Shown here in pieces: positions 28,947-37,937 of a DNA stretch of 64,000 nt. Numbering within the stretch: the first letter of the stretch is position 1; each line of letters opens with the position of its first letter. Below the pieces are notes generated by a model. The model ran no database searches. It was not told where the DNA came from and saw only the letters and a list, made by a program, of their open reading frames with translations. Made by a program: the position numbers and the translations under genes. This stretch comes from Chloroflexia bacterium (GTDB taxonomy: Bacteria; Chloroflexota; Chloroflexia; DTKN01). The DNA lies in contig JBDOIE010000015.1 of NCBI GenBank assembly GCA_041082245.1, positions 18,589 through 82,588 on the forward strand, given 5' to 3'.

Positions 28947-29243
28947 GTGCCGCAGACCCTGCGCGTCGAGATTGTAGAGGTGCAAGGCAATTGCCCCGTC
29001 TACCGGGGCGGCGAGTCTTTCTACATCGAGGCCGGGTATCGGCTGAAAGCACCGGAGCCCGTTTGCCTCCACGGAATCGTCAGCATTCTTCCGTACTACG
29101 TTGCACTGGCAAGAGGCATTCCCGCGCGGGACCTGGGCCTTGCGGGCCCTGACGGGGCCGCCTACGTGCAATGCCTCGACCCTCACGCCCTTACCGGCGG
29201 GGGCACCGTGACTTTTCGGCTGACGACCGAGGCCGCACCGTAG
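28947..29243 (+). CDS. Small conserved hypothetical protein (98 aa, 3 Cys)
   Basis: GTG start preceded by AAAGGAGG with a 5-nt spacer. Balanced amino-acid composition. Overlaps the 3' end of the convergent 29183..31636 gene by 61 nt. Confidence 0.45.
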   Translation: MPQTLRVEIVEVQGNCPVYRGGESFYIEAGYRLKAPEPVCLHGIVSILPYYVALARGIPARDLGLAGPDGAAYVQCLDPHALTGGGTVTFRLTTEAAP

Positions 29244-31636
29244 CACAGGGCTCCCGCGGCCAGGACCGCGCCGTATCCCGCCGTGAGGGCCAGCCACTGT
29301 GCCCCGATCGCGCCCACAACCGATGCACATCCGTTCGCCGCCCAGGCCCACGGGATGAGCGATCGCCGTGTGCTGCCCAGGGCACGTATGGCGGTGGGAA
29401 AGGGAATTCCCATCCCGAAGCCCAGGGGCAGCAGAAGCAAGGTGCCGATCCCCAGGCGCGCCCAAAAGGGAAGGCCCATCGTCGCCTGGACAAGCAGCGG
29501 CAACCCTGGCACAGCGAGCGCGATCGTCGTCGCGAGCACAAGGAGCAGTCCACCGAGCCGAACCTCCCGGCCTGCGCTCCACAGGCTTCCAAGCCCGGAC
29601 CCGACGAGCAGGGCGAAGAGCACGGTCGCCGTGGCGTAGAGCGGCCGGTCGAGGTACAGGGTAAACCGCCCCAAGAGCGGAATCTCCACAGCCATAAACC
29701 CGACGCCGAGCGCTGCGAAGTAGAGCAACACCGGGCCACGGCCGGCTACCTTTTCCCGGCGGTGCAGCGCGACCGGGAGCAAGATGAGCAACCCTGACGC
29801 CCCGACCGCAAGCAGGAGCAGCACAGGCACGATCAGGAAGCCCGCTCCCCCGAACGGCTGCGCGGTCTGCCCGTACTGCGCCAGCAGCTGCGGCAACTGA
29901 CGCCACGTGAAGAACTGGTAGAAGAAAGGGCGATCGTCCTCGGCCGGTCGGACATCGGCCGGCCAGCTGCGCAGGAACGCGCGGCGGTCCGGACCCACCA
30001 GGTAGCCTCGAAACGCATCGTAATAGATGGGCCCTTCCCGCACGATGTTGTGACGGTTCGCTTCCCCACGCTGCATGCCCGGGAGCCAGACGAGGTCGAA
30101 GCGCCGTTCCGCGCAGAAGCGGCGCACAGTCTGCAGCTCCGCAGGCGTCCACGCTTCCCGCCGCGCGAGGAGCAGCAGAGTGGACCAGCTGCGCACGGCA
30201 ACGATCTGTGCCTCCGGATGCGATGTTCCTTCCCGCTCCAGGGCTTCAACGAGCGTCGTGAGTGCCCGCAGTTCCTCCGAAGGTGGCTGCTGCAACCAGC
30301 GCGTGATCGCGAGGATCCCGTCCGGGGCAAGCCGTCGTAGCGCAGCGCGGAACGACTCTACCGTGTAGCGGCTTTCTTCGACCAGACTGTAGGCGCCTGC
30401 GGTCACCACCGTCCGCTCCCCGGTCAGGCAGTAGACGATCAGGTCGAATTGCGGTCCGCACGAGGCCAGGTAGGAGCGGGCGCCCCGGTGCAACACACGT
30501 ACCTGGGGACGGGAGAAGATCCCGCCGATCTCCGAGGCCAAGTGCTCCTCGACCACTTCTGCGACCAGCGGGTCCTGCTGGATGACCACGATCTCGCGCG
30601 CTCCTTGCTCCAGTGCTTGCAGCAGGTCCAGCCCACCCATCGGCTCGATAAGCAGGGTGCGCGCCCCCGGGCGGATGTGATAGGGCAGGGAGGTCAGCAT
30701 CGCATCCAGGAAAGCGGGAGGGGCATCCGATGCGTGCACCAGGGTGAGCGGCGAAGGCTGATCGCCGTCGATCGTCAATGACATCTGCTGGGGCAACGGG
30801 CCGCTAGGCACGAGGGGCAGACCTGGGAAGGAGTGGTACGGACCACCGGCGACGACGTCCACGCGCGCGGCCGCATGCTCTTTCGAGTACACGAGGCGCG
30901 CGCCCGGGAAGAAGAGCTGCTGCACCAGGCTCTTGTGGGGGTCCATACGCGGTGTCAAAGCGGGGGGAGGGCGCAGGAGGAGGATCAGCGAACCTCCTAG
31001 CCCGGCAAGTGCGAAGAGTACCGGCCACGACCGCTTCCCCAGCGAGAAGAGTACCGCGGCGGTGGCAGCCAGAAGCGCGGCCGCCAGCGGAAGCCTCTGG
31101 CTACCCAGGAGACCGATAAGCGGAACGGCAAGCGCTGTCCCCAGGGCCGATCCGGCCAGGTTTGCACCGTACAGCCGGCCAGCGTGCTCCGGTGTAGATT
31201 CCAGCACCAGGCACACCACCAGACCCCCGCAGAGGAAGGGAAGGCCCAGCGCGAGGTAGTACAGCGTAAGGTACACGTACTGGCGGCGGTCCCAAGCCAC
31301 AGCATACAGGTCGAGCGGAAGGGCGTGAAGGATCCACAGCAGAACCACACATAGCGCGGAGAAACCGATGCTCAGTCCGACCAGGGTCTGGCGTCGCAGC
31401 GGCCGTGTGAGGCCCGGAAACGCGGCGTGGAGCGACCCCCCCGCGCCGCTCCCGAGCAATGCCAGGCTGACCACGAGGAAGGCGAAATGGTACCATTGGC
31501 ACACCGCGAGCATGCGCGTGAGCCCGACCTCGAGGAGGAGGACGCTTGCAGAAAGCAACGACAGGCCCAGGTAGAGCGCGACCACTGCCGGCTCCTGGAG
31601 ACCTTGGCTACTCCGGTTCAACCCGCGCGAGGGCAT
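29183..31636 (-). CDS. Membrane-embedded spermidine-synthase-like (class I SAM/aminopropyltransferase fold) protein. N- and C-terminal polytopic TM blocks flank the catalytic-fold domain.
   Basis: The central region (RARTLLIEPMGGLDLLQALEQGAREIVVIQQDP ... FDLIVYCLTG ... LAPDGILAI) resembles the SpdS fold, with many hydrophobic helices on both sides. Start set to the ATG at 31636 (MPSRGLNR); the ORF-track start at 31804 would overlap the upstream gene. Confidence 0.55.
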   Translation of the reverse strand: MPSRGLNRSSQGLQEPAVVALYLGLSLLSASVLLLEVGLTRMLAVCQWYHFAFLVVSLALLGSGAGGSLHAAFPGLTRPLRRQTLVGLSIGFSALCVVLLWILHALPLDLYAVAWDRRQYVYLTLYYLALGLPFLCGGLVVCLVLESTPEHAGRLYGANLAGSALGTALAVPLIGLLGSQRLPLAAALLAATAAVLFSLGKRSWPVLFALAGLGGSLILLLRPPPALTPRMDPHKSLVQQLFFPGARLVYSKEHAAARVDVVAGGPYHSFPGLPLVPSGPLPQQMSLTIDGDQPSPLTLVHASDAPPAFLDAMLTSLPYHIRPGARTLLIEPMGGLDLLQALEQGAREIVVIQQDPLVAEVVEEHLASEIGGIFSRPQVRVLHRGARSYLASCGPQFDLIVYCLTGERTVVTAGAYSLVEESRYTVESFRAALRRLAPDGILAITRWLQQPPSEELRALTTLVEALEREGTSHPEAQIVAVRSWSTLLLLARREAWTPAELQTVRRFCAERRFDLVWLPGMQRGEANRHNIVREGPIYYDAFRGYLVGPDRRAFLRSWPADVRPAEDDRPFFYQFFTWRQLPQLLAQYGQTAQPFGGAGFLIVPVLLLLAVGASGLLILLPVALHRREKVAGRGPVLLYFAALGVGFMAVEIPLLGRFTLYLDRPLYATATVLFALLVGSGLGSLWSAGREVRLGGLLLVLATTIALAVPGLPLLVQATMGLPFWARLGIGTLLLLPLGFGMGIPFPTAIRALGSTRRSLIPWAWAANGCASVVGAIGAQWLALTAGYGAVLAAGALCYGAASVVSRKVTVPPPVRA

Positions 31637-31670
31637 TGGACCCCGGAAGCGCACGGAGCGAACAGTGGGC

Positions 31671-32633
31671 TCAGAGAGCGCCGGATGCTTCTTCCTCGCG
31701 GTACCAGCGGTAGAACCGTTCCAGGCCCTCTTCCAGGCATGTGCGCGGCTCGAAACCGAGCAGCCGCCGTGCCTTGGAGATATCCGCGTGGGTAAGCGGA
31801 ACATCGCCCGGGGCAGGGGGTTCCTGCACCACGTGGGCCTTTCGTCCGACGATCTGCTCGATCAGGGCGATAAAGCCTCGCACCGTAACGGTACGGGAGT
31901 TGCCCAGGTTGATGATTTCCCAGGCGAGTTCGGCGTCCAGAGCCGCCAGTACCCCGGCGACGATGTCGTCGATGTAGGTAAAATCGCGCTGGGCGCTCCC
32001 GTCTCCGTACAGGTGGAGCGGTTCGCCGCGGTGTATCGCCTCGGTGAACCGGTATGGGGCCATATCGGGGCGACCACGCGGGCCGTACACCGTGAAGAAA
32101 CGAAGCGCTGTACACGGCAGACCATACAGGTGATGGTACGTGTAGGCGAGCAGCTCCGCAGCGCGTTTCGTTGCTGCGTAGGGAGAGATCGGGTGCAGAC
32201 ATGGGTCGTCCTCGCGGAACGGCGGGCGGCTGTCCACCCCGTAAACCGAGGAGCTGGAAGCAAGGAGGAATGCTCGCACGCCGAACCGGCGTGCCTGCTC
32301 GAGCAAAACCAGCGTCCCTCCCACGTTGACTTCCTGGAAGAGCTGTGGCTGGGCCAGCGAGTAGCGGACCCCGGCCATCGCCGCAATGTGCACAACCTTC
32401 TCCGGCCGCTCCGTTTCGAACAGAGAACGCACCGTGCTCACATCCCGGATGTCTCCTTCCCAGAGGCGAAAGTTGGAGCGCCCGAAGAGCGGGGCGATGT
32501 TGCGCCGTTTCCGCGCCGGGCTGTAGTAATCGTGAAAGTTGTCCAGACAGACCACCTCGTCGCCGCGTGCGACCAGCGCCTCGCAGACGTGCGAGCCGAT
32601 GAACCCGGCCCCTCCGGTCACAAGCACCTTCAC
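31671..32633 (-). CDS. NAD-dependent nucleotide-sugar epimerase, UDP-glucuronate 4-epimerase-like
   Basis: [15 protein letters not shown], the NFHDYY motif and YxxxK. Overlaps the UXS stop by 4 nt (ATGA). Confidence 0.7.
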
Positions 32634-33595
32634 AACCGCCCCTCCTTTTCCAGACGCGCGCGGAACCAGGCCACCGTGTGGGTGAGTCCTTCCTCCAGCG
32701 GCACCACCGGTTCCCAGTTCAGGATGCGTCGGGCGAGGGTGATGTCCGGCTGGCGCACGTGGGGATCGTCACGGGTGCGTTCGTCGTTTGGGACGACGAA
32801 CTTGATCGGCGAACGGCTCCCTGTGATTTTCAGGACAAGCCGTGCGAAATCCAGAATGGTCATCTCCTGCGGGTTTCCGAGGTTGACCGGACCCGGGTAG
32901 TCGCTGAAGAGCAACCGCGTGAGGCCCTCTACCATGTCGGAGATGTAACAGAACGACCGCGTACGCTGCCCGTCGTCGTAGACCGTGAGTGGCTCGCCCA
33001 GTAGCGCCTGCCGGATAAAGTTCGGCACCACGCGTCCGTCGTCCAGCCGCATCCGGGGCCCGTAGGTGTTAAAGATGCGCGCGATGCGGGTCGGAATGCC
33101 GTGGGCGCGGTGGTAAGCCATGGTCAGCGCTTCCGCAAAGCGCTTAGACTCGTCGTAAACGCCCCGCGGCCCCACCGGATTGACGTTGCCCCAGTAAGTC
33201 TCGGGCTGAGGATGTATCTGTGGGTCGCCGTAGACCTCGGAGGTGGAAGCAAGCAAGAACACGGCCCGCTTGGCGAGCGCGAGCCCAAGGGCGTTGTGCG
33301 TCCCCAGCGCGCCCACCTTCAGGGTCTGGATTGGCTTTTCCAGGTAGTCGACCGGGCTGGGCAGCGACGCGAGGTGGAGGATCGCATCCAGTGGGCCCTC
33401 CACGTGGATGAAGCGGGTGACATCGTGCAGCACAAAGTGGAAGCGCTCGTGTTCCATCAGGTGTGCGATGTTATCCTTACTCCCGGTCACGAGGTTATCC
33501 ATTGCGATGACCTCGTGGCCTTCCGCGAGGAAACGCTCGCACAGGTGGGAACCGATGAAGCCGGCGCCGCCCGTGACGAGGATCCGCATGTCCAC
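32630..33595 (-). CDS. UDP-glucuronate decarboxylase (UDP-xylose synthase)
   Basis: [28 protein letters not shown] and YDESKRFAE are strongly UXS-like. Confidence 0.8.
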
Positions 33596-33635
33596 CTCCG
33601 CTTTTCGAGGGGCGGTTCCTCCTGTGAGAACGCCC

Positions 33636-35105
33636 CTAGTACGCGCCCTTGCCGGTGATCACTGCCGGGATCGTACGCAACAGGATCACCAGATCGAGCC
33701 ACAGGTTCCAGTTCTCGATGTAGTAGAGGTCCAACCGGACCATCTCGTCGAAGGTGAGGTCGCTTCGCCCGGAGACCTGCCAGATGCCTGTCAGACCAGG
33801 GAGAACCTCAAGGCGTTTCCGATGCCACGGCTCGTACTGTGCAACCTCGCCCGGGGTTCCTGGCCGGGGTCCTACCCAGCTCATCTCGCCCCACAGGATG
33901 TTAAAGACCTGTGGCAGCTCGTCGAGGCTTGTGCGGCGCAGGATGCGTCCCACGCGCGTGACCCGGGGGTCATCGCGGATCTTGAAGAGCGGGCCGCTGG
34001 CCTCGTTGAGCGGGGCGAGCCGCTCCTGTTCGGCTTCGGCATTGGCGTGCATGGTGCGGAACTTGAGCAGCGTGAAAGGCCTCCCTCGCCGACCGATCCG
34101 CCTCTGACGAAAGAGCACCGGCCCTGGGGAATCCAGTTTGATCGCCAGGGCGATGGCCAGGAGCAGCGGCCATCCGAGCGCGAGCACGAGGAGGCTGAGG
34201 ACGATGTCGAGCGTACGCTTCAGGACGAGGTTCCATCCGCGGATGGCTACCTCTTTCAGCCCGATCAGGGGGATGCCCGCCAGCTCGGCTACATCCACCC
34301 GGTCGAAGCTCATCTCGAAGAGATCGGGTGCGATCCGAAAGTCCACCCCCTCCTGGCGGCACAGGTTGGCGACTTCGAGCGTCTGCCGGTGCTCGTGCGG
34401 TGGAAGCGCGATGATGACCTCGTCGATGCGACAGGGCTGCAGGACAAGGGGAAGGTCCTCCGTCCGGCCCAGGTAGCGAAACGTCCCCTCGATCTCGCTT
34501 GGTGCATCCCCAGGGCGGTCTTCGTTGTCCAAGTAGCCCACGAGGAAGTATCCCAGTTCCGGCCGGCTCTGGATGCTTTCCATCACGCGCTTTCCGGCCT
34601 GGCCCGCCCCTACGACGAGCACGCGCTCGACCCCGATGCCGTTTTTCCAGAGCCAGCACTGCAGCCGGCGGACAAGCGCCCGGCCCCCTGCGACGGCCAC
34701 GGTGATGGTGAACCAGGCGTAGAGATACAGCAGGCGCGTGTAATAGGTGCGCGTAGCATAGAGCACGACGACGAGGATGGCTACGGCGAGCGTTGTGCTA
34801 TCCGCAATGCGTGCAAGCGCTTCCAGCCAGCTCGCACCACGCGGAAGCCGGTAAAGCCCACGGCTCTCCAGCAGGATGAGGAGGATGCCCACGAGGGTCA
34901 GGCCGATCCAGAAGAAATTCTGGAACGGCAGATAGTAGATCTCGAGCACAGCGCGCCCGAGCTGAAGGTCGTACCGCAGCCAGTACGCCAGGGCAAAGCC
35001 CGCGAAGGCCATGCCGGCATCCAGGCAGAGCAAGCCAATGTGCTGAATGATGCGTCGTAGGCGTCGACTCAGCAAACCACACCTCTGCGGTCGATCCGCG
35101 CCCAT
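33636..35105 (-). CDS. Polyprenyl-phosphate sugar phosphotransferase (WbaP/exopolysaccharide priming glycosyltransferase family)
   Basis: C-terminal bacterial sugar transferase domain ([11 protein letters not shown] ... [21 protein letters not shown]) plus N-terminal TM helices. Confidence 0.8.
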
Positions 35106-35437
35106 TATACCACAACCGTCGGCACCGGCGCGCTGCAGGTACAGACGGCACTCGCGATATCCGTAGCCGAGCTTCTACGACGTAACAGGCCAGTCGGCCG
35201 GCCGGCCCCGCAAAAGCGCCCCGGAACCGGAGAATCTTACGGGATGACGGAAGGTGCCGCTGCATACGGAGCACGCGTGGGAGTGTCGGTTGCGAGCCAC
35301 GTCGCACCGATCGATGGGAGACAGCGCCACCGCGCAGAACGGTGCAACCGATGCTCGAGACGTTCGATGTGCACCTCGCGGGCAATGTTCGGCCGCCGGG
35401 CGACCCTCTGTTGGAACTCAGCTGGCCAGGAGCCTCC

Positions 35438-35466
35438 TTGACGACCAGGGATGACTTGGGTATGAT
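35438..35466 (+). promoter_or_regulatory. Sigma70-like promoter: TTGACG, 17 bp, TATGAT, upstream of the membrane gene at 35515
   Basis: Read directly. The -10 hexamer is 48 nt upstream of the GTG start. Confidence 0.45.
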
Positions 35467-35514
35467 ACGCTCGCAGTCTGCTCCCGGCAAAAGGTCGCAC
35501 GAGGACGTGGATCC

Positions 35515-37023
35515 GTGAGAGCTTCTCGGCTTGCCGTGCTGTTTTCCCGCGAGGCGCTCTGGACAGGGAGCCTCTTTCTCCTCTTCCTCTTCGCGCTATT
35601 GGTGCAGCCGCTCCGTTCTGCCGACTTCTGGTGGCACCTGAAGGTGGGCGAGATCGTCCTGGACGAGCACGCCGTGCCCCGCGTCGATCGCTTTTCGACC
35701 ACCATGGCTGGGCATCCGTACACCTACCAGAGCTGGTTGGCAGGGGTGTGCTTTGCGCTCCTCTACCGTCTGGGCGGCGCGGGCACGGTTGTGGTGGCCC
35801 ACGCCTTGCTCCTCAGCGCGGCTTACTCCCTCCTGTGGAGCGTCTGTCGGAAAGCCGGCGGCCACCCGCTGGTGGCGACGGCGTGCACGTTCGCGGCGAT
35901 GGTCGTTTGCGGCGGAAACTGGGGCGTCCGGCCTCAGAGCTTCTCCACCTTCCTTTTTGCGCTCTTTTTCTGGCTCTTGGTACGCCACGCGCGGGGCGAG
36001 CAGGTACCGTGGTGGCTTTTTCCTCTGGGGATGGTGGTGTGGGCGAACCTGCACGGAGGCTTCGTACTGGGTCTGGGATTGCTTGGTGCGGCGGTGGTGG
36101 GGGAAGGGATCGCGTGGTTGTTGCCAGGCCGGCCGTTCCCGATCGTTTCGGGCAAGCGCTGGACGGGGATGGTCGGAGCACTGGTCTCTTCCGTTGTTGG
36201 CACGCTGGTGAATCCGGCCGGCCTGGGAGTCTACGCGTATGTCCGCAGGATCCAGCGAAACCCGGTCATCCACGGAGCCATTGCCGAGTGGCAGCCCCCG
36301 CGTGTGGACGAGCCTGTGGGAGCGATCTTCTTTGGCTCTTTGTTCCTGCTGTTCCTTGTCCTTCTTTACCGGGGGTACCGACCGCATCCGAGGGAAGCGC
36401 TGTGGTTGCTCGGCACCGGGTGGTTGGCCCTCGGTAGCGTCCGAAGCATCCTCTGGTACACGTTTCCGATGGCGCTGCTGCTGGCCCAGTCGGTGGGAAC
36501 CGTTCGTCTGCCCCGGATACGAAAGCCGCGCGTCGGCGAGGCGGTGGCGAACGGTGCGGTGCTCGTGCTCCTGCTGGCGCTCGTGGTCGCGGCGCTTCCG
36601 CCGTTCAAAGGACGATTGCCCCTTGGGGCGGACCTGCGGGGGACCATCGCCCCGGACACCCCAGTACGTGCCACAGACTATATCCTGAGCCACGGCCTCG
36701 CTGGGCCGATTTTCCACCGGATGGAGTACGGGGACTACCTGCTCTGGCGCTGTTATCCAGAACGGCGGGTCTTTGTCGATCCCCGTATCGAGCTGTATCC
36801 GCCTGCGATCTGGGAGGCGTACGAAGCCATCTCACAGGGCGGGCCGCAGGCCGCGAATCTGCTCGAGCAGTACGGCATCCGCGTCCTGCTCCTGGACCGG
36901 GTCCGCCAGGCGCGTCTGCTGGAGTGGGCGCGTAGCTCCGGCCTGTGGCATCTGTGTTTTGAGGACGAGGCAGAGGGGACCGCAGTGCTCGCACAGAGCT
37001 GTCCCGGAGACAAGGTTCAGTGA
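35515..37023 (+). CDS. Polytopic membrane protein with a C-terminal soluble domain (GT-C-type glycosyltransferase-like)
   Basis: 11 or more TM helices, then a roughly 150-aa hydrophilic C-terminus. GTG start. Family uncertain. Confidence 0.4.
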   Translation: MRASRLAVLFSREALWTGSLFLLFLFALLVQPLRSADFWWHLKVGEIVLDEHAVPRVDRFSTTMAGHPYTYQSWLAGVCFALLYRLGGAGTVVVAHALLLSAAYSLLWSVCRKAGGHPLVATACTFAAMVVCGGNWGVRPQSFSTFLFALFFWLLVRHARGEQVPWWLFPLGMVVWANLHGGFVLGLGLLGAAVVGEGIAWLLPGRPFPIVSGKRWTGMVGALVSSVVGTLVNPAGLGVYAYVRRIQRNPVIHGAIAEWQPPRVDEPVGAIFFGSLFLLFLVLLYRGYRPHPREALWLLGTGWLALGSVRSILWYTFPMALLLAQSVGTVRLPRIRKPRVGEAVANGAVLVLLLALVVAALPPFKGRLPLGADLRGTIAPDTPVRATDYILSHGLAGPIFHRMEYGDYLLWRCYPERRVFVDPRIELYPPAIWEAYEAISQGGPQAANLLEQYGIRVLLLDRVRQARLLEWARSSGLWHLCFEDEAEGTAVLAQSCPGDKVQ

Positions 37024-37937
37024 AACCATCCCCCCAGGGCGATGCCGCTCGAGACGAGCGAAGCGGCTGCCCATAGCGAGACGGCGCGGAGAGAAGGTAC
37101 AGGGAGAGGGTTTGACGGGGCACGCAGGAGGGGAAGCGATTGGCCCAGGAGAGCGAAGGCCAGGAACGTCCCCCACGATGGTCGGCTGAGAAGGATCCAG
37201 AGAACCCCTGTCGCCTGAGGAAAGAGGAAGCCCATCGCGGCTTTCCGCGGGGCATCCTGTCGCAGAAGGGCTAGCCACGCGCCTGCGGCCGTGCCCCATA
37301 ACAGTCCCAGGCACAGGGAGGGGATGGAAAGCGGGGCCCGGCAAGCGTGCCCGAGCCACCAGGGCCAGGCGATCAGTGAGATCCCTGCGAGGAGGAGTCT
37401 TGGCCAGGTGCGAGATCGGGCAAGCCGGAGCAAGCCGAGGAGGGCCAGGCCGGCTGCACACGCGACGAGCGGGCGATTTCCCAGGAGGGCGCAGGTCAGA
37501 AGAAGCGTGACAAGCAGAAAAGCGAACTCAGGCGTTGTTCTCTTCGCGAGTGCTGTCTGCACCTTCCGGAAGGCTTTGCCGAGTGCGCGGGCGGCGAGGG
37601 CGCTGAGGGAGCCAGGCCGGGTGTAGGGAAGATAGGGGAACGAACGGGCAGAAGAAGCGCGCCGCAGGGATGGGGGGTTGGTTGGGCTGGAGCGATCGGC
37701 CCCCGCGCCGTATCCTACGAGTCGAACCCAGACCGTACCTATGAGCAAGCAACCGAGAAACAGGCGCGCAAGGTCCCACCAGCGCAGCGTCTGGCTTCCT
37801 GCGGCGGCACCCCCCGCGACCCACGCCAACGCGCTGGCCACACCCGCAGGTGTCAGCGCGAGCCGGATCTCCGGCCCTACGAGTGCCGCAACAGGCCCTG
37901 ATCTGGGTGACTCGCGGTGCTCGGTCCTCATTGCCAT
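37017..37937 (-). CDS. Hypothetical integral membrane protein (306 aa) in an operon downstream of amt
   Basis: Hydrophobic helices. 10-nt overlap with the amt 3' end. No recognisable motif. It could be an antisense artefact. Confidence 0.3.
   Translation of the reverse strand: MAMRTEHRESPRSGPVAALVGPEIRLALTPAGVASALAWVAGGAAAGSQTLRWWDLARLFLGCLLIGTVWVRLVGYGAGADRSSPTNPPSLRRASSARSFPYLPYTRPGSLSALAARALGKAFRKVQTALAKRTTPEFAFLLVTLLLTCALLGNRPLVACAAGLALLGLLRLARSRTWPRLLLAGISLIAWPWWLGHACRAPLSIPSLCLGLLWGTAAGAWLALLRQDAPRKAAMGFLFPQATGVLWILLSRPSWGTFLAFALLGQSLPLLRAPSNPLPVPSLRAVSLWAAASLVSSGIALGGWFH

Follow-up and report, generated by a model that had tools for sequence, protein, structure and literature searches.

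Introduction

Bacterial fusions of an MFS transporter to a spermidine synthase-like (SpdS-like) domain, the MFS-SpdSyn-like fusions, are uncharacterised. Putrescine is not believed to be their substrate, and they are presumed to be dcSAM-dependent because they are linked to AdoMet decarboxylase genes. Such fusions, with the SpdS-like domain at the C-terminus and a genetic link to AdoMet decarboxylase, were reportedly described by Li, Kurihara, Kim, Liang and Michael in 2019 (Biochem J 476:2579). This work is cited in PMC11237479.

In fungi, the 7TM-SpdS-like protein NHMT (AN4663) is a proven protein N-terminal histidine methyltransferase of secreted proteins, which acts in the ER and requires its membrane part for activity (PMC10349129). 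An earlier note on the DNA studied here had stated that no function was shown for the membrane-fused SpdS family; as far as we found this holds for bacteria, but not for the fungal enzyme. In plants, the Golgi SAM transporters GoSAMT1-3 are of the MFS type and are needed for pectin methyl-esterification (bioRxiv 10.1101/2021.07.06.451061, PMC9946043), and they were proposed to bring SAM into a topologically extracytoplasmic compartment for the methyl-esterification of uronic-acid polysaccharides (PMC9946043).

The window analysed here is a stretch of 64,000 nucleotides from a Chloroflexia bacterium (contig JBDOIE010000015.1), in which three genes for sugar enzymes are followed by a gene (gene 4) that encodes a membrane protein with a SpdS fold. 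Its folds, predicted topology, residue losses and gene neighbourhoods were computed.

Results

Four co-directional minus-strand open reading frames were found at 33636-35105, 32630-33595, 31671-32633 and 29183-31804 (genes 1 to 4). Their order, given earlier as a priming polyprenyl-phosphate sugar transferase, a UDP-glucuronate decarboxylase, a UDP-glucuronate 4-epimerase-like SDR and the membrane protein, was upheld, as were the identities of the first three from Pfam/NCBIfam, UXS1 and PDB matches, with gene 3 remaining only epimerase-like.

Gene 1 (33636..35105, minus strand) encodes a putative priming polyprenyl-phosphate glycosylphosphotransferase of the large WbaP/WcaJ type, with Bac_transf (PF02397, 230 bits) and CoA_binding_3 (PF13727) domains. 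It scored 461 bits with TIGR03025, above the cut-off of 295.55, and 410.5 bits with TIGR03023, just under the cut-off of 410.75. As the TIGR03025 cut-off was reached and the catalytic Bac_transf domain is present, gene 1 is by sequence a polyprenyl glycosylphosphotransferase. The reading frame holds 489 aa, whereas gene callers begin at Met32 (35012), which yields 458 aa, the length also called in locus L087.

The product of gene 2 (32630..33595, minus strand) matched human UXS1 (4gll/2b69) with 379 bits (E 1.4e-112) over residues 3-318, its full length, compared to only 134 bits for the next-best family; by this full-length closeness to a characterised UDP-xylose synthase (UXS) it is assigned as a UDP-glucuronate decarboxylase. 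Its likely start is the ATG at 33589, with GGAGG 6 nt upstream, giving 319 aa. Gene 3 (31671..32633, minus strand), a putative SDR nucleotide-sugar 4-epimerase of the UDP-glucuronate 4-epimerase-like kind, matched PDB 5u4q (deposited as a dehydratase) with 273 bits, the Bacillus cereus UDP-GlcA 4-epimerase 6zl6 with 197 bits, a UDP-hexose epimerase with 197.5 bits and MoeE5 with 167 bits, and reached no NCBIfam equivalog cut-off. It carries a motif of 15 residues (not shown) that we take to be typical of the UDP-glucuronate 4-epimerase group.

The four genes are closely spaced. Genes 1 and 2 are separated by 46 nt, counted to the likely start of gene 2; the stop of the UXS gene and the start of the epimerase gene share 4 nt (GTGA); and 85 nt separate gene 3 from the likely GTG start of gene 4 at 31585. 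In a consensus scan of the locus, promoter-like hexamers were confined to the regions upstream of gene 1 and downstream of gene 4 (three sites observed vs 0.5 expected in shuffles), with no internal promoter-like site between genes 1 and 4. Operon membership is predicted from this spacing and these consensus scans. Upstream of gene 1, the divergent intergenic region 35106..35514 contains one promoter-like site per strand, at 35490-35462 on the minus strand and 35438-35466 on the plus strand, both being consensus matches only.

Beyond this region, divergent from the operon and outside the coordinates covered by the earlier note, lies a plus-strand gene (35515..37023) for a GT-C-fold glycosyltransferase of 502 aa. 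Its product had no Pfam or NCBIfam match and showed both the GT-C membrane fold and an acidic residue conserved near the N-terminus (invariant D37). This gene belongs to the same picture. At the other end, a small convergent plus-strand gene (28947..29243) overlaps the 3' end of gene 4 by 61 nt and encodes a TIGR04076 family protein of 98 aa (41.8 bits vs a cut-off of 33), which is conserved and called in loci L001, L087 and L088.

The open reading frame of gene 4 reaches 31804 and would encode the 873 aa given earlier, but it would then share 134 nt with gene 3. Translation probably begins at the GTG at 31585, with AGGAG 6 nt upstream, so that the gene (29183..31585, minus strand) encodes about 800 aa; this agrees with the gene call and with homologs of ~800 aa. 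An alternative start is the ATG at 31636, from which the residues of gene 4 are numbered here.

In the AF2 model (pLDDT 88.6, pTM 0.89) gene 4 encodes a 14-TM MFS transporter with an inserted SpdS-fold domain. The MFS N-domain (TM1-6) and an extra helix, TM7, are encoded at 30974..31588, the predicted extracytoplasmic domain at 29846..30931, and a second extra helix, TM8, with the MFS C-domain (TM9-14) at 29210..29842, all on the minus strand. TM7 and TM8 are modelled as hydrophobic helices on either side of the SpdS-fold domain, with seven helices in all C-terminal of this domain (~240-597). The modelled helices 1-6 and 9-14 are one MFS fold of two six-helix bundles. The earlier description of a SpdS/class-I fold flanked by polytopic membrane blocks stands with regard to the fold, but the two blocks are not separate. 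No MFS model in Pfam or NCBIfam matched gene 4, even at E<=10. Conserved residues of the N-domain are E36 and R41 (TM1), H50 (TM2) and D109 (outside loop 3-4), and E651 (TM9) is conserved in the C-domain.

Over 118 homologs, the mean number of K+R was 14.5 in the MFS-inside loops vs 1.7 in the short outside loops. The SpdS-fold domain connects TM7 with TM8, and as the inside-positive loops of the MFS fold are on the other side, it is predicted to face the outside of the cell. We know of no dcSAM or SAM pool outside the cytoplasm.

The central domain does have the SpdS/class-I fold. Within its ~360 residues, an N-terminal beta-sheet of the SpdS type is followed by a Rossmann-type core (~245-450), and residues ~450-597 form a C-terminal extension. 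No Pfam or NCBIfam threshold was reached by gene 4: PF01564 (Spermine_synth) scored the full protein at 15.8 bits and the domain at 18.0 bits, both below the gathering score of 22.9, and NF002010 gave 13.5-15.6 bits vs a cut-off of 260. The search against the membrane-fused SpdS models that had been suggested as a check also fell short, with 11.6 bits (E 0.083) for NF037959 vs a cut-off of 40. Like the members of this last family, named 'fused MFS/spermidine synthase', gene 4 has an MFS-type membrane domain and a SpdS-like domain in one chain. Unlike them, it carries the domain not at the C-terminus but in the middle of a 14-TM MFS protein, enclosed by the two extra helices, and neither the dcSAM acid nor the catalytic Asp is present. 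No AdoMetDC gene was seen near gene 4. Gene 4 is thus a new kind of fusion among the uncharacterised MFS-SpdS-like proteins.

The residues of the domain were positioned by alignment to 1uir and 7xif and followed in censuses of 118 and 138 family members (256 in total). Position 334, the dcSAM-selecting acid of GxG(D/E)G, was never D/E in any of the 256, being Gly in 118/118 and G/T/A/S among the 138 diverse members. Position 403, the catalytic Asp (D170 in T. maritima), was likewise never Asp in these sequences; it is Cys in the window protein and S/A/P/C/G/T across the family. The second Asp (D173), at position 406, is Gly in the window protein, and only about half of the family has D/E there. 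At position 353, the ribose-binding acid at the end of beta-2, the window protein has Gln with an Asp two residues later; family-wide this position is E in 77-79% and Ile/Val/Gln/His in ~21%, with E-x-N in most relatives. The glycine loop of the window protein reads E-P-M-G-G, of which G334 and G335 are conserved. With the dcSAM-specific acid and the catalytic Asp lost, the dcSAM motif on which the earlier note had made its reading depend is largely gone.

A different set of polar residues is retained. R387 and D567 occur without exception, E420 and T425 in 137/138 diverse representatives, and G414 is counted with these four as family-invariant. The conserved residues cluster on the acceptor-side half of the fold, whereas the cofactor side is degraded; both the glycine loop and the beta-2 Gln speak against the outside domain binding SAM in the canonical way.

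The reading of the earlier note, in which gene 4 may aminopropylate or methylate the lipid-linked glycan, would make it a cytoplasm-facing membrane aminopropyltransferase or methyltransferase. The SpdS fold itself, the glycine pair G334/G335 and the E353 of ~78% of the family fit such an enzyme, and some homologs have a precomputed PF01564 match or are called 'spermidine synthase' by some sources. However, the residue losses described above, which in the window protein extend to the beta-2 acid and the second Asp, the unmet Pfam and NCBIfam thresholds and the predicted outside position between TM7 and TM8 make this reading very improbable. Because the domain is predicted outside and the SpdS catalytic residues are absent, gene 4 is probably not a polyamine-type enzyme.

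The best structural matches of gene 4 were DHA1-type and vesicular amine antiporters (NorA, SotB, VMAT2 and VAChT). Along with the membrane-embedded Glu residues in TM1 (E36) and TM9 (E651) and the acceptor-side clustering, these matches would suit a proton-coupled exporter or sensor for a cationic amine, for example a polyamine, whose outside domain kept only the amine-binding pocket. Nevertheless, the putrescine-binding residues of SpdS (the two Asp after beta-4) are not kept, and no polyamine genes were found in any neighbourhood examined. As this proposal also leaves both the glycan operon and the methyltransferase neighbour described below unexplained, it is considered improbable.

Gene 4 belongs to a very large, unstudied family of Chloroflexota, with 6,175 clusters at 50% identity (E<=1e-30), which is near-ubiquitous in the phylum (at least 541 species-level genomes). 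The four-gene order recurs in L001, L088 and L090, relatives of 60-77% identity, and in L002 (59% identity) the transferase, the UXS and the transporter are kept together without the epimerase. Most family members, which have 40-46% identity and keep all the invariant residues, have no adjacent glycan genes, although four Anaerolineae loci have a homolog of the priming transferase 1-1.5 kb upstream. The association with glycan genes is therefore clade-specific and not family-wide, and the co-occurrence with UXS and priming transferase genes that the earlier note had proposed as a check is seen in the relatives of 59-77% identity but not across the family.

Alternatively, gene 4 might encode an envelope protein with a housekeeping role, which stands last in a sugar operon in this clade without any functional link to the glycan. 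The near-ubiquity of the family, its variable neighbourhoods and the core genes that surround the operon in the window (homoserine dehydrogenase, RuvC and MreB) are consistent with this. Yet the arrangement persists across five genomes of 59-99% identity while the downstream flanks vary, and the tight co-directional spacing without an internal promoter-like site also speaks for a link, so that we consider this explanation improbable.

Among the more distant relatives the common neighbour is instead a gene for a protein-L-isoaspartate O-methyltransferase (PCMT), which lies ~100 bp away in 56/70 loci with enough flank and is convergent with the family gene, without co-transcription. The four PCMT proteins that were scanned all passed equivalog cut-offs, and 48/55 PCMT neighbours have a lipobox or an N-terminal anchor; they are predicted from their sequences to be extracellular, lipoprotein-type users of SAM. 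E at position 353 showed no clear tracking with PCMT adjacency across the family.

Discussion

Transport by gene 4, which way it runs, what is carried and how it is coupled to the glycan are inferred from these data. In the preferred reading, to which we give an even chance, gene 4 encodes an exporter that has a ligand-handling domain tethered on the outside and serves extracytoplasmic envelope modification. The two extra central helices (7 and 8) would carry the ~360-residue domain to the outer face of the membrane. This domain would descend from spermidine synthase, having lost the residues that define an aminopropyltransferase and retained a differently placed, strictly conserved polar set (R387, E420, T425 and D567). 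A compound from the cytoplasm would cross the membrane through the MFS part and, at the surface, be bound or processed by the outside domain.

For the cargo, S-adenosylmethionine or a related adenosyl compound, used for methylation outside, is tentatively preferred. This lead rests on the PCMT neighbours of relatives, the fungal 7TM-SpdS-like methyltransferase and the plant MFS-type Golgi SAM transporters. As no PCMT gene was found near the window operon, L001 or L002, the argument is borrowed from relatives of 40-46% identity. The likeness to NHMT is at the level of architecture: both proteins join a membrane domain to a SpdS-family fold and have another residue in place of the acid of GxG(D/E)G, and the ER site of NHMT is topologically equivalent to the bacterial outside, where the gene 4 domain is predicted. 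However, NHMT has seven helices, a C-terminal domain and the SAM-binding Glu (E340), whereas gene 4 has a full MFS part, an inserted domain and Gln at this position. With GoSAMT1-3 the common ground is the MFS fold; these transporters are eukaryotic and have no fused domain, and SAM transport by gene 4 is hypothetical.

The next candidate cargo, a lipid-linked sugar, is a doubtful one. A corresponding and similarly doubtful explanation of the whole protein is that its MFS part is a flippase or translocase for a polyprenyl-diphosphate-linked sugar that the priming transferase of the operon makes and that feeds the GT-C enzyme, the SpdS-fold domain being a docking or regulatory module. The locus encodes both a priming and a GT-C transferase and no other flippase candidate; the linkage of the transferase, UXS and transporter genes persists in relatives as distant as 59% identity, although their flanks change; and the Anaerolineae loci point the same way. 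On the other hand, the lack of adjacent glycan genes in most of the family and the PCMT neighbour are left unexplained, and so is the retention, across thousands of lineages, of a SpdS-derived domain whose polar site is invariant. LtaA (PDB 6s7v), an MFS protein that flips a lipid-linked disaccharide, differs from gene 4 in having 12 helices and lacking an extracytoplasmic domain, and it resembles gene 4 no more closely than many unrelated MFS proteins do, cation and drug antiporters included. In the ArnA/ArnC/ArnEF/ArnT and RgtE/RgtA-D systems a GT2 enzyme makes a monophosphate-linked donor and the flippases are small proteins of the EamA/SMR type; here, in contrast, a phosphoglycosyl transferase would give a diphosphate-linked product, and the MFS fusion is the only transporter candidate.

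The UDP-xylose/UDP-galacturonate and lipid-linked-sugar context of the operon is plausible, as the earlier note had proposed, with the reservation that the glycan link is specific to this clade. It is strengthened by the adjacent GT-C enzyme and by the conservation of the four-gene order in the relatives of 60-77% identity. UXS and the epimerase would make UDP-Xyl and UDP-GalA, polyprenyl phosphate would be loaded with a sugar phosphate by the priming transferase, and sugar transfer outside would fall to the GT-C enzyme encoded next to the operon. As an exporter with a tethered outside domain, gene 4 would in this genome serve the pathway encoded around it.

Gene content and conservation of the glycan locus

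Four minus-strand open reading frames in the same direction make up the region, and the identities and order proposed in the earlier note for the first three held. The first encodes a large polyprenyl glycosylphosphotransferase (33636-35105) with Bac_transf and CoA_binding_3 domains, which scored 461 bits with TIGR03025 against a cut-off of 295.55. It is followed by a UDP-glucuronate decarboxylase (UXS; 32630-33595), matched over its full length by human UXS1 (379 bits, E 1.4e-112; next family 134 bits), and by an extended SDR (31671-32633) whose solved relatives include 5u4q (273 bits), 6zl6 (197 bits) and MoeE5. Among the best of these, 6zl6 is the UDP-glucuronate 4-epimerase of B. cereus; as the SDR passed no NCBIfam equivalog cut-off, it is named here only 'UDP-GlcA 4-epimerase-like'. 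The last frame, MFS/SpdS-like, has 873 codons (29183-31804), the first 73 of which lie within the spacer or overlap the epimerase gene. A GTG at 31585, with AGGAG upstream at a spacing of 6 nt, yields a protein of 800 aa that matches gene callers and homologs; residue numbers refer to the 817-aa form, which begins at an alternative ATG (31636).

The transferase and UXS genes are 46 nt apart, UXS and the epimerase gene share 4 nt (GTGA), and 85 nt separate the epimerase gene from the fusion gene. Promoter-like hexamers were confined to the divergent intergenic region (35106-35514) and to the stretch that follows the last gene. Because of this spacing and hexamer distribution, the four genes look like one operon. 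A 98-aa gene of the TIGR04076 family (28947-29243, plus strand) converges on the transporter gene, with an overlap of 61 nt at the transporter gene's 3' end. Three other loci (L001, L087 and L088) have it conserved in the corresponding position, which in distant relatives is taken by a methyltransferase gene.

Divergent from the operon, on the plus strand, lies a gene for a 502-aa membrane protein (35515-37023) with a confident GT-C glycosyltransferase fold and no Pfam or NCBIfam match; among its distant homologs, one bears the name RgtA/B/C/D-like. Activation of sugars, their loading onto polyprenyl phosphate, a transferase acting outside and the MFS fusion are thus encoded together. The glycan context suggested earlier was supported, and is extended by the GT-C gene. 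A 306-aa ORF (37017-37937, minus strand), called as a gene in L087, converges on the GT-C gene with a slight overlap. Its sole family match is very weak (chlorophyll-synthase/UbiA-type, E 0.015), and it may encode a polyprenyl-related membrane protein.

The order transferase, UXS, epimerase and fusion was also found in relatives with 77%, 73% and 60% identity, and a 59% relative keeps transferase, UXS and fusion with the epimerase missing. As this order is kept down to about 60% identity while the downstream flanks vary among the loci that share transferase, UXS and fusion, it supports a functional link of the fusion to the glycan genes within the window clade. In the 60% relative (L090:5107-7514), where transferase, UXS and epimerase likewise precede it, the transporter gene is split in the gene call into two pieces of 279 and 531 aa that overlap, through either a frameshift or an assembly error.

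Fold and topology of the fusion protein

In direct scans at E<=0.01 the large protein matched nothing in Pfam or NCBIfam, and at E<=10 only sub-threshold SpdS (spermidine synthase) matches were obtained (PF01564, 15.8-18.0 bits vs 22.9); NF037959 reached 11.6 bits against a cut-off of 40. Full-length relatives of some 800 aa number in the hundreds, chiefly in Chloroflexota, and a profile of 36 of them matched Thermus SpeE (1uir) with an E of 3e-9. A confident AlphaFold model from the alignment of relatives (pLDDT 88.6, pTM 0.89) returned spermidine synthase matches for its central part in Foldseek. The spermidine synthase fold that had been proposed for the central domain was confirmed by the profile and by Foldseek. 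The two polytopic membrane blocks proposed with it are the two halves, N- and C-domain, of one MFS. The model has 14 helices; 7 and 8 are extra ones at the centre, and residues ~240-597 between them form the SpdS-fold domain.

The N-terminus, C-terminus and central loop of MFS proteins are cytoplasmic. The domain, inserted between the extra central helices, is therefore predicted to face outside, and the loop charge agrees as a second, independent argument: in 118 homologs, the mean number of Lys plus Arg was 14.5 in predicted inside loops vs 1.7 in short outside loops.

Loss of the aminopropyltransferase residues

The catalytic positions of SpdS were placed on the family by HMMER alignments to 1uir and 7xif, and residues were counted in the 118 homologs and in a more diverse set of 138 cluster representatives. 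The acid of GxG(D/E)G that selects decarboxylated SAM (dcSAM) falls at family position 334, which is Gly in the window protein and never D/E in the family, and the catalytic Asp after beta-4 falls at position 403, which is Cys in the window protein and Ser, Ala or Pro, never Asp, in the family. The second Asp (position 406) is Gly in the window protein and D/E in about half of the family. Position 353, where beta-2 ends and SpdS has its ribose-binding acid, is Gln in the window protein and Glu in 77-79% of the family, with Ile, Val, Gln or His in the remainder. Residues 353-355 (30568-30578) read Gln353/Asp355 in the window clade vs Glu353/Asn355 in most relatives, and this may be an acid/amide swap that retains one carboxylate in the former ribose-binding site.

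Other residues are kept: R387 and D567 never vary, and 137 of the 138 representatives have E420 and T425. All four map to the acceptor side of the fold, within the loop that follows beta-4 or the C-terminal extension. It is concluded that the fold is that of SpdS but that aminopropyl transfer is not the predicted chemistry; for the window protein, canonical binding of SAM is doubtful. The aminopropyltransferase function suggested in the earlier note found no support in either set, with position 334 never D/E and 403 never Asp, and the dcSAM motif, whose loss was to count against it, is largely gone from the window protein (G334, C403, G406, Q353).

A methyltransferase neighbour in the wider family

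MFS–SpdS-like fusions are widespread and are not known to have a function in bacteria. A species-level genome scan yielded at least 541 relatives, the best 80 of which (37-46% identity) belong mainly to Anaerolineae and Dehalococcoidia, and an exhaustive profile search returned 6,175 clusters at 50% identity (E<=1e-30). Outside the window clade, glycan genes are usually absent around family members. This counts against a lipid-linked sugar of the window operon as the transported compound, a cargo that operon content and the precedent of LtaA both favour, and which is tentatively ranked second, little behind SAM. A priming-transferase homolog near the MFS/SpdS-like gene of Anaerolineae relatives was weighed as glycan support and judged weak, as it occurs in four closely related loci only and a YgeY-type M20 hydrolase gene intervenes (three Anaerolineae loci: L062:8818-10008, L027:8619-9803, L047:2906-4087).

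In 56 of the 70 loci with enough flank, a convergent gene was found about 100 bp downstream of MFS/SpdS-like, often reaching into its 3' end. The four proteins scanned all passed the equivalog cut-offs for protein-L-isoaspartate O-methyltransferase (PCMT; NF001453, 242-256 bits vs 188). Four of the 56 genes, all on the minus strand, are at L003:10420-11229, L030:7807-8589, L079:12402-13205 and L008:2574-3377, with about 50 more. As 48 of 55 non-redundant PCMTs begin with a lipobox or hydrophobic anchor and continue with a linker rich in Pro and Thr, the enzyme is predicted to be an extracellular, SAM-dependent repair enzyme; one also has a LysM-like segment. No paper describing an extracytoplasmic, lipoprotein or exported isoaspartyl methyltransferase was found in the literature, and tblastn detected no PCMT gene in the 64-kb window or in the loci of two relatives (L001 and L002).

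Residue 353 was compared with PCMT adjacency: with Glu, PCMT adjoined in 48 loci and not in 17, and with Val, Ile or Ala it was present in 5. These counts are not decisive and are therefore not used as support. At about ten loci, the region 1-2 kb downstream of MFS/SpdS-like contains a gene for a lipoprotein thioredoxin-cyclophilin fusion (plus strand at L042:13484-14803 and L003:12245-13507); its thioredoxin/DsbA-like part belongs to the Rcas_1661 family, making it a second extracytoplasmic protein-maintenance gene nearby. In two Dehalococcoidia genomes (L005:6752-7624 and L006:6752-7624), the MFS/SpdS-like gene is directly preceded by a GYD-domain gene and one of homocysteine S-methyltransferase type (PF02574), and the methyltransferase lipoprotein is encoded 7 kb downstream.

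A putative exporter and its candidate cargo

The simplest common reading of the transporter fold, the outward domain of SAM-enzyme ancestry with its new invariant site, and the outside-acting neighbours (GT-C enzyme and priming transferase in the window clade, lipoprotein methyltransferase and folding catalyst elsewhere) is an exporter. Such a protein would take a compound from the cytoplasm and hand it over either to its own domain outside or to partner enzymes, and the compound would serve envelope modification outside the membrane.

SAM or a related adenosyl compound is tentatively ranked first as cargo, because of the ancestry of the domain and because a predicted extracellular SAM user adjoins in most of the family. 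Precedents are the fungal NHMT, a 7TM-SpdS-like methyltransferase that acts on secreted proteins (PMC10349129), and the plant MFS-type Golgi SAM transporters needed for pectin methyl-esterification (PMC9946043). Against SAM stand the degraded cofactor site, the lack of a methyltransferase neighbour in the window genome, and the fact that this neighbour, where present, is convergent. A cationic amine as the exported compound is rated improbable. Like NHMT, the window protein has a membrane-tethered SpdS-like fold, predicted on the non-cytoplasmic side, but it differs in its membrane part and in the residue at the SAM-binding Glu position.

The closest described kind, with both components common to the window protein, is the bacterial MFS-SpdSyn-like fusion (NF037959), reportedly described by Li et al. 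2019 (Biochem J), a study cited in PMC11237479. The window protein departs from it in score threshold, domain order and presumed dcSAM dependence, and is regarded as a variant within this still uncharacterised kind.

Under SAM as cargo, a broader and rather speculative proposal, unlikely as it stands, is that the family forms a self-contained 'export and present' SAM module for SAM-dependent chemistry outside the cytoplasmic membrane. It would feed the lipoprotein PCMT, for extracellular protein repair, in most Chloroflexota, and xylose/galacturonate surface-glycan methylation in the window clade, with the SpdS-derived domain as a catalytically disabled SAM holder. If true, the holder would keep the cofactor from diffusing off a cell without an outer membrane, and the priming transferase would, together with the GT-C enzyme, build the glycan that is methylated in the window clade.

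For the window genome, the analysis defines a compact envelope-glycosylation locus of priming transferase, UXS, epimerase, MFS fusion and GT-C enzyme. The family of the window protein alone comprises over 6,000 clusters (50% identity). In this protein, a complete MFS carries an inserted, predicted outward SpdS-fold domain that has lost the aminopropyltransferase residues and kept a new invariant site; transport and outside binding, not polyamine synthesis, are therefore worth studying. The recurrent pairing with a lipoprotein-type PCMT raises the testable question of whether, and how, bacteria run SAM-dependent reactions outside the cytoplasm.
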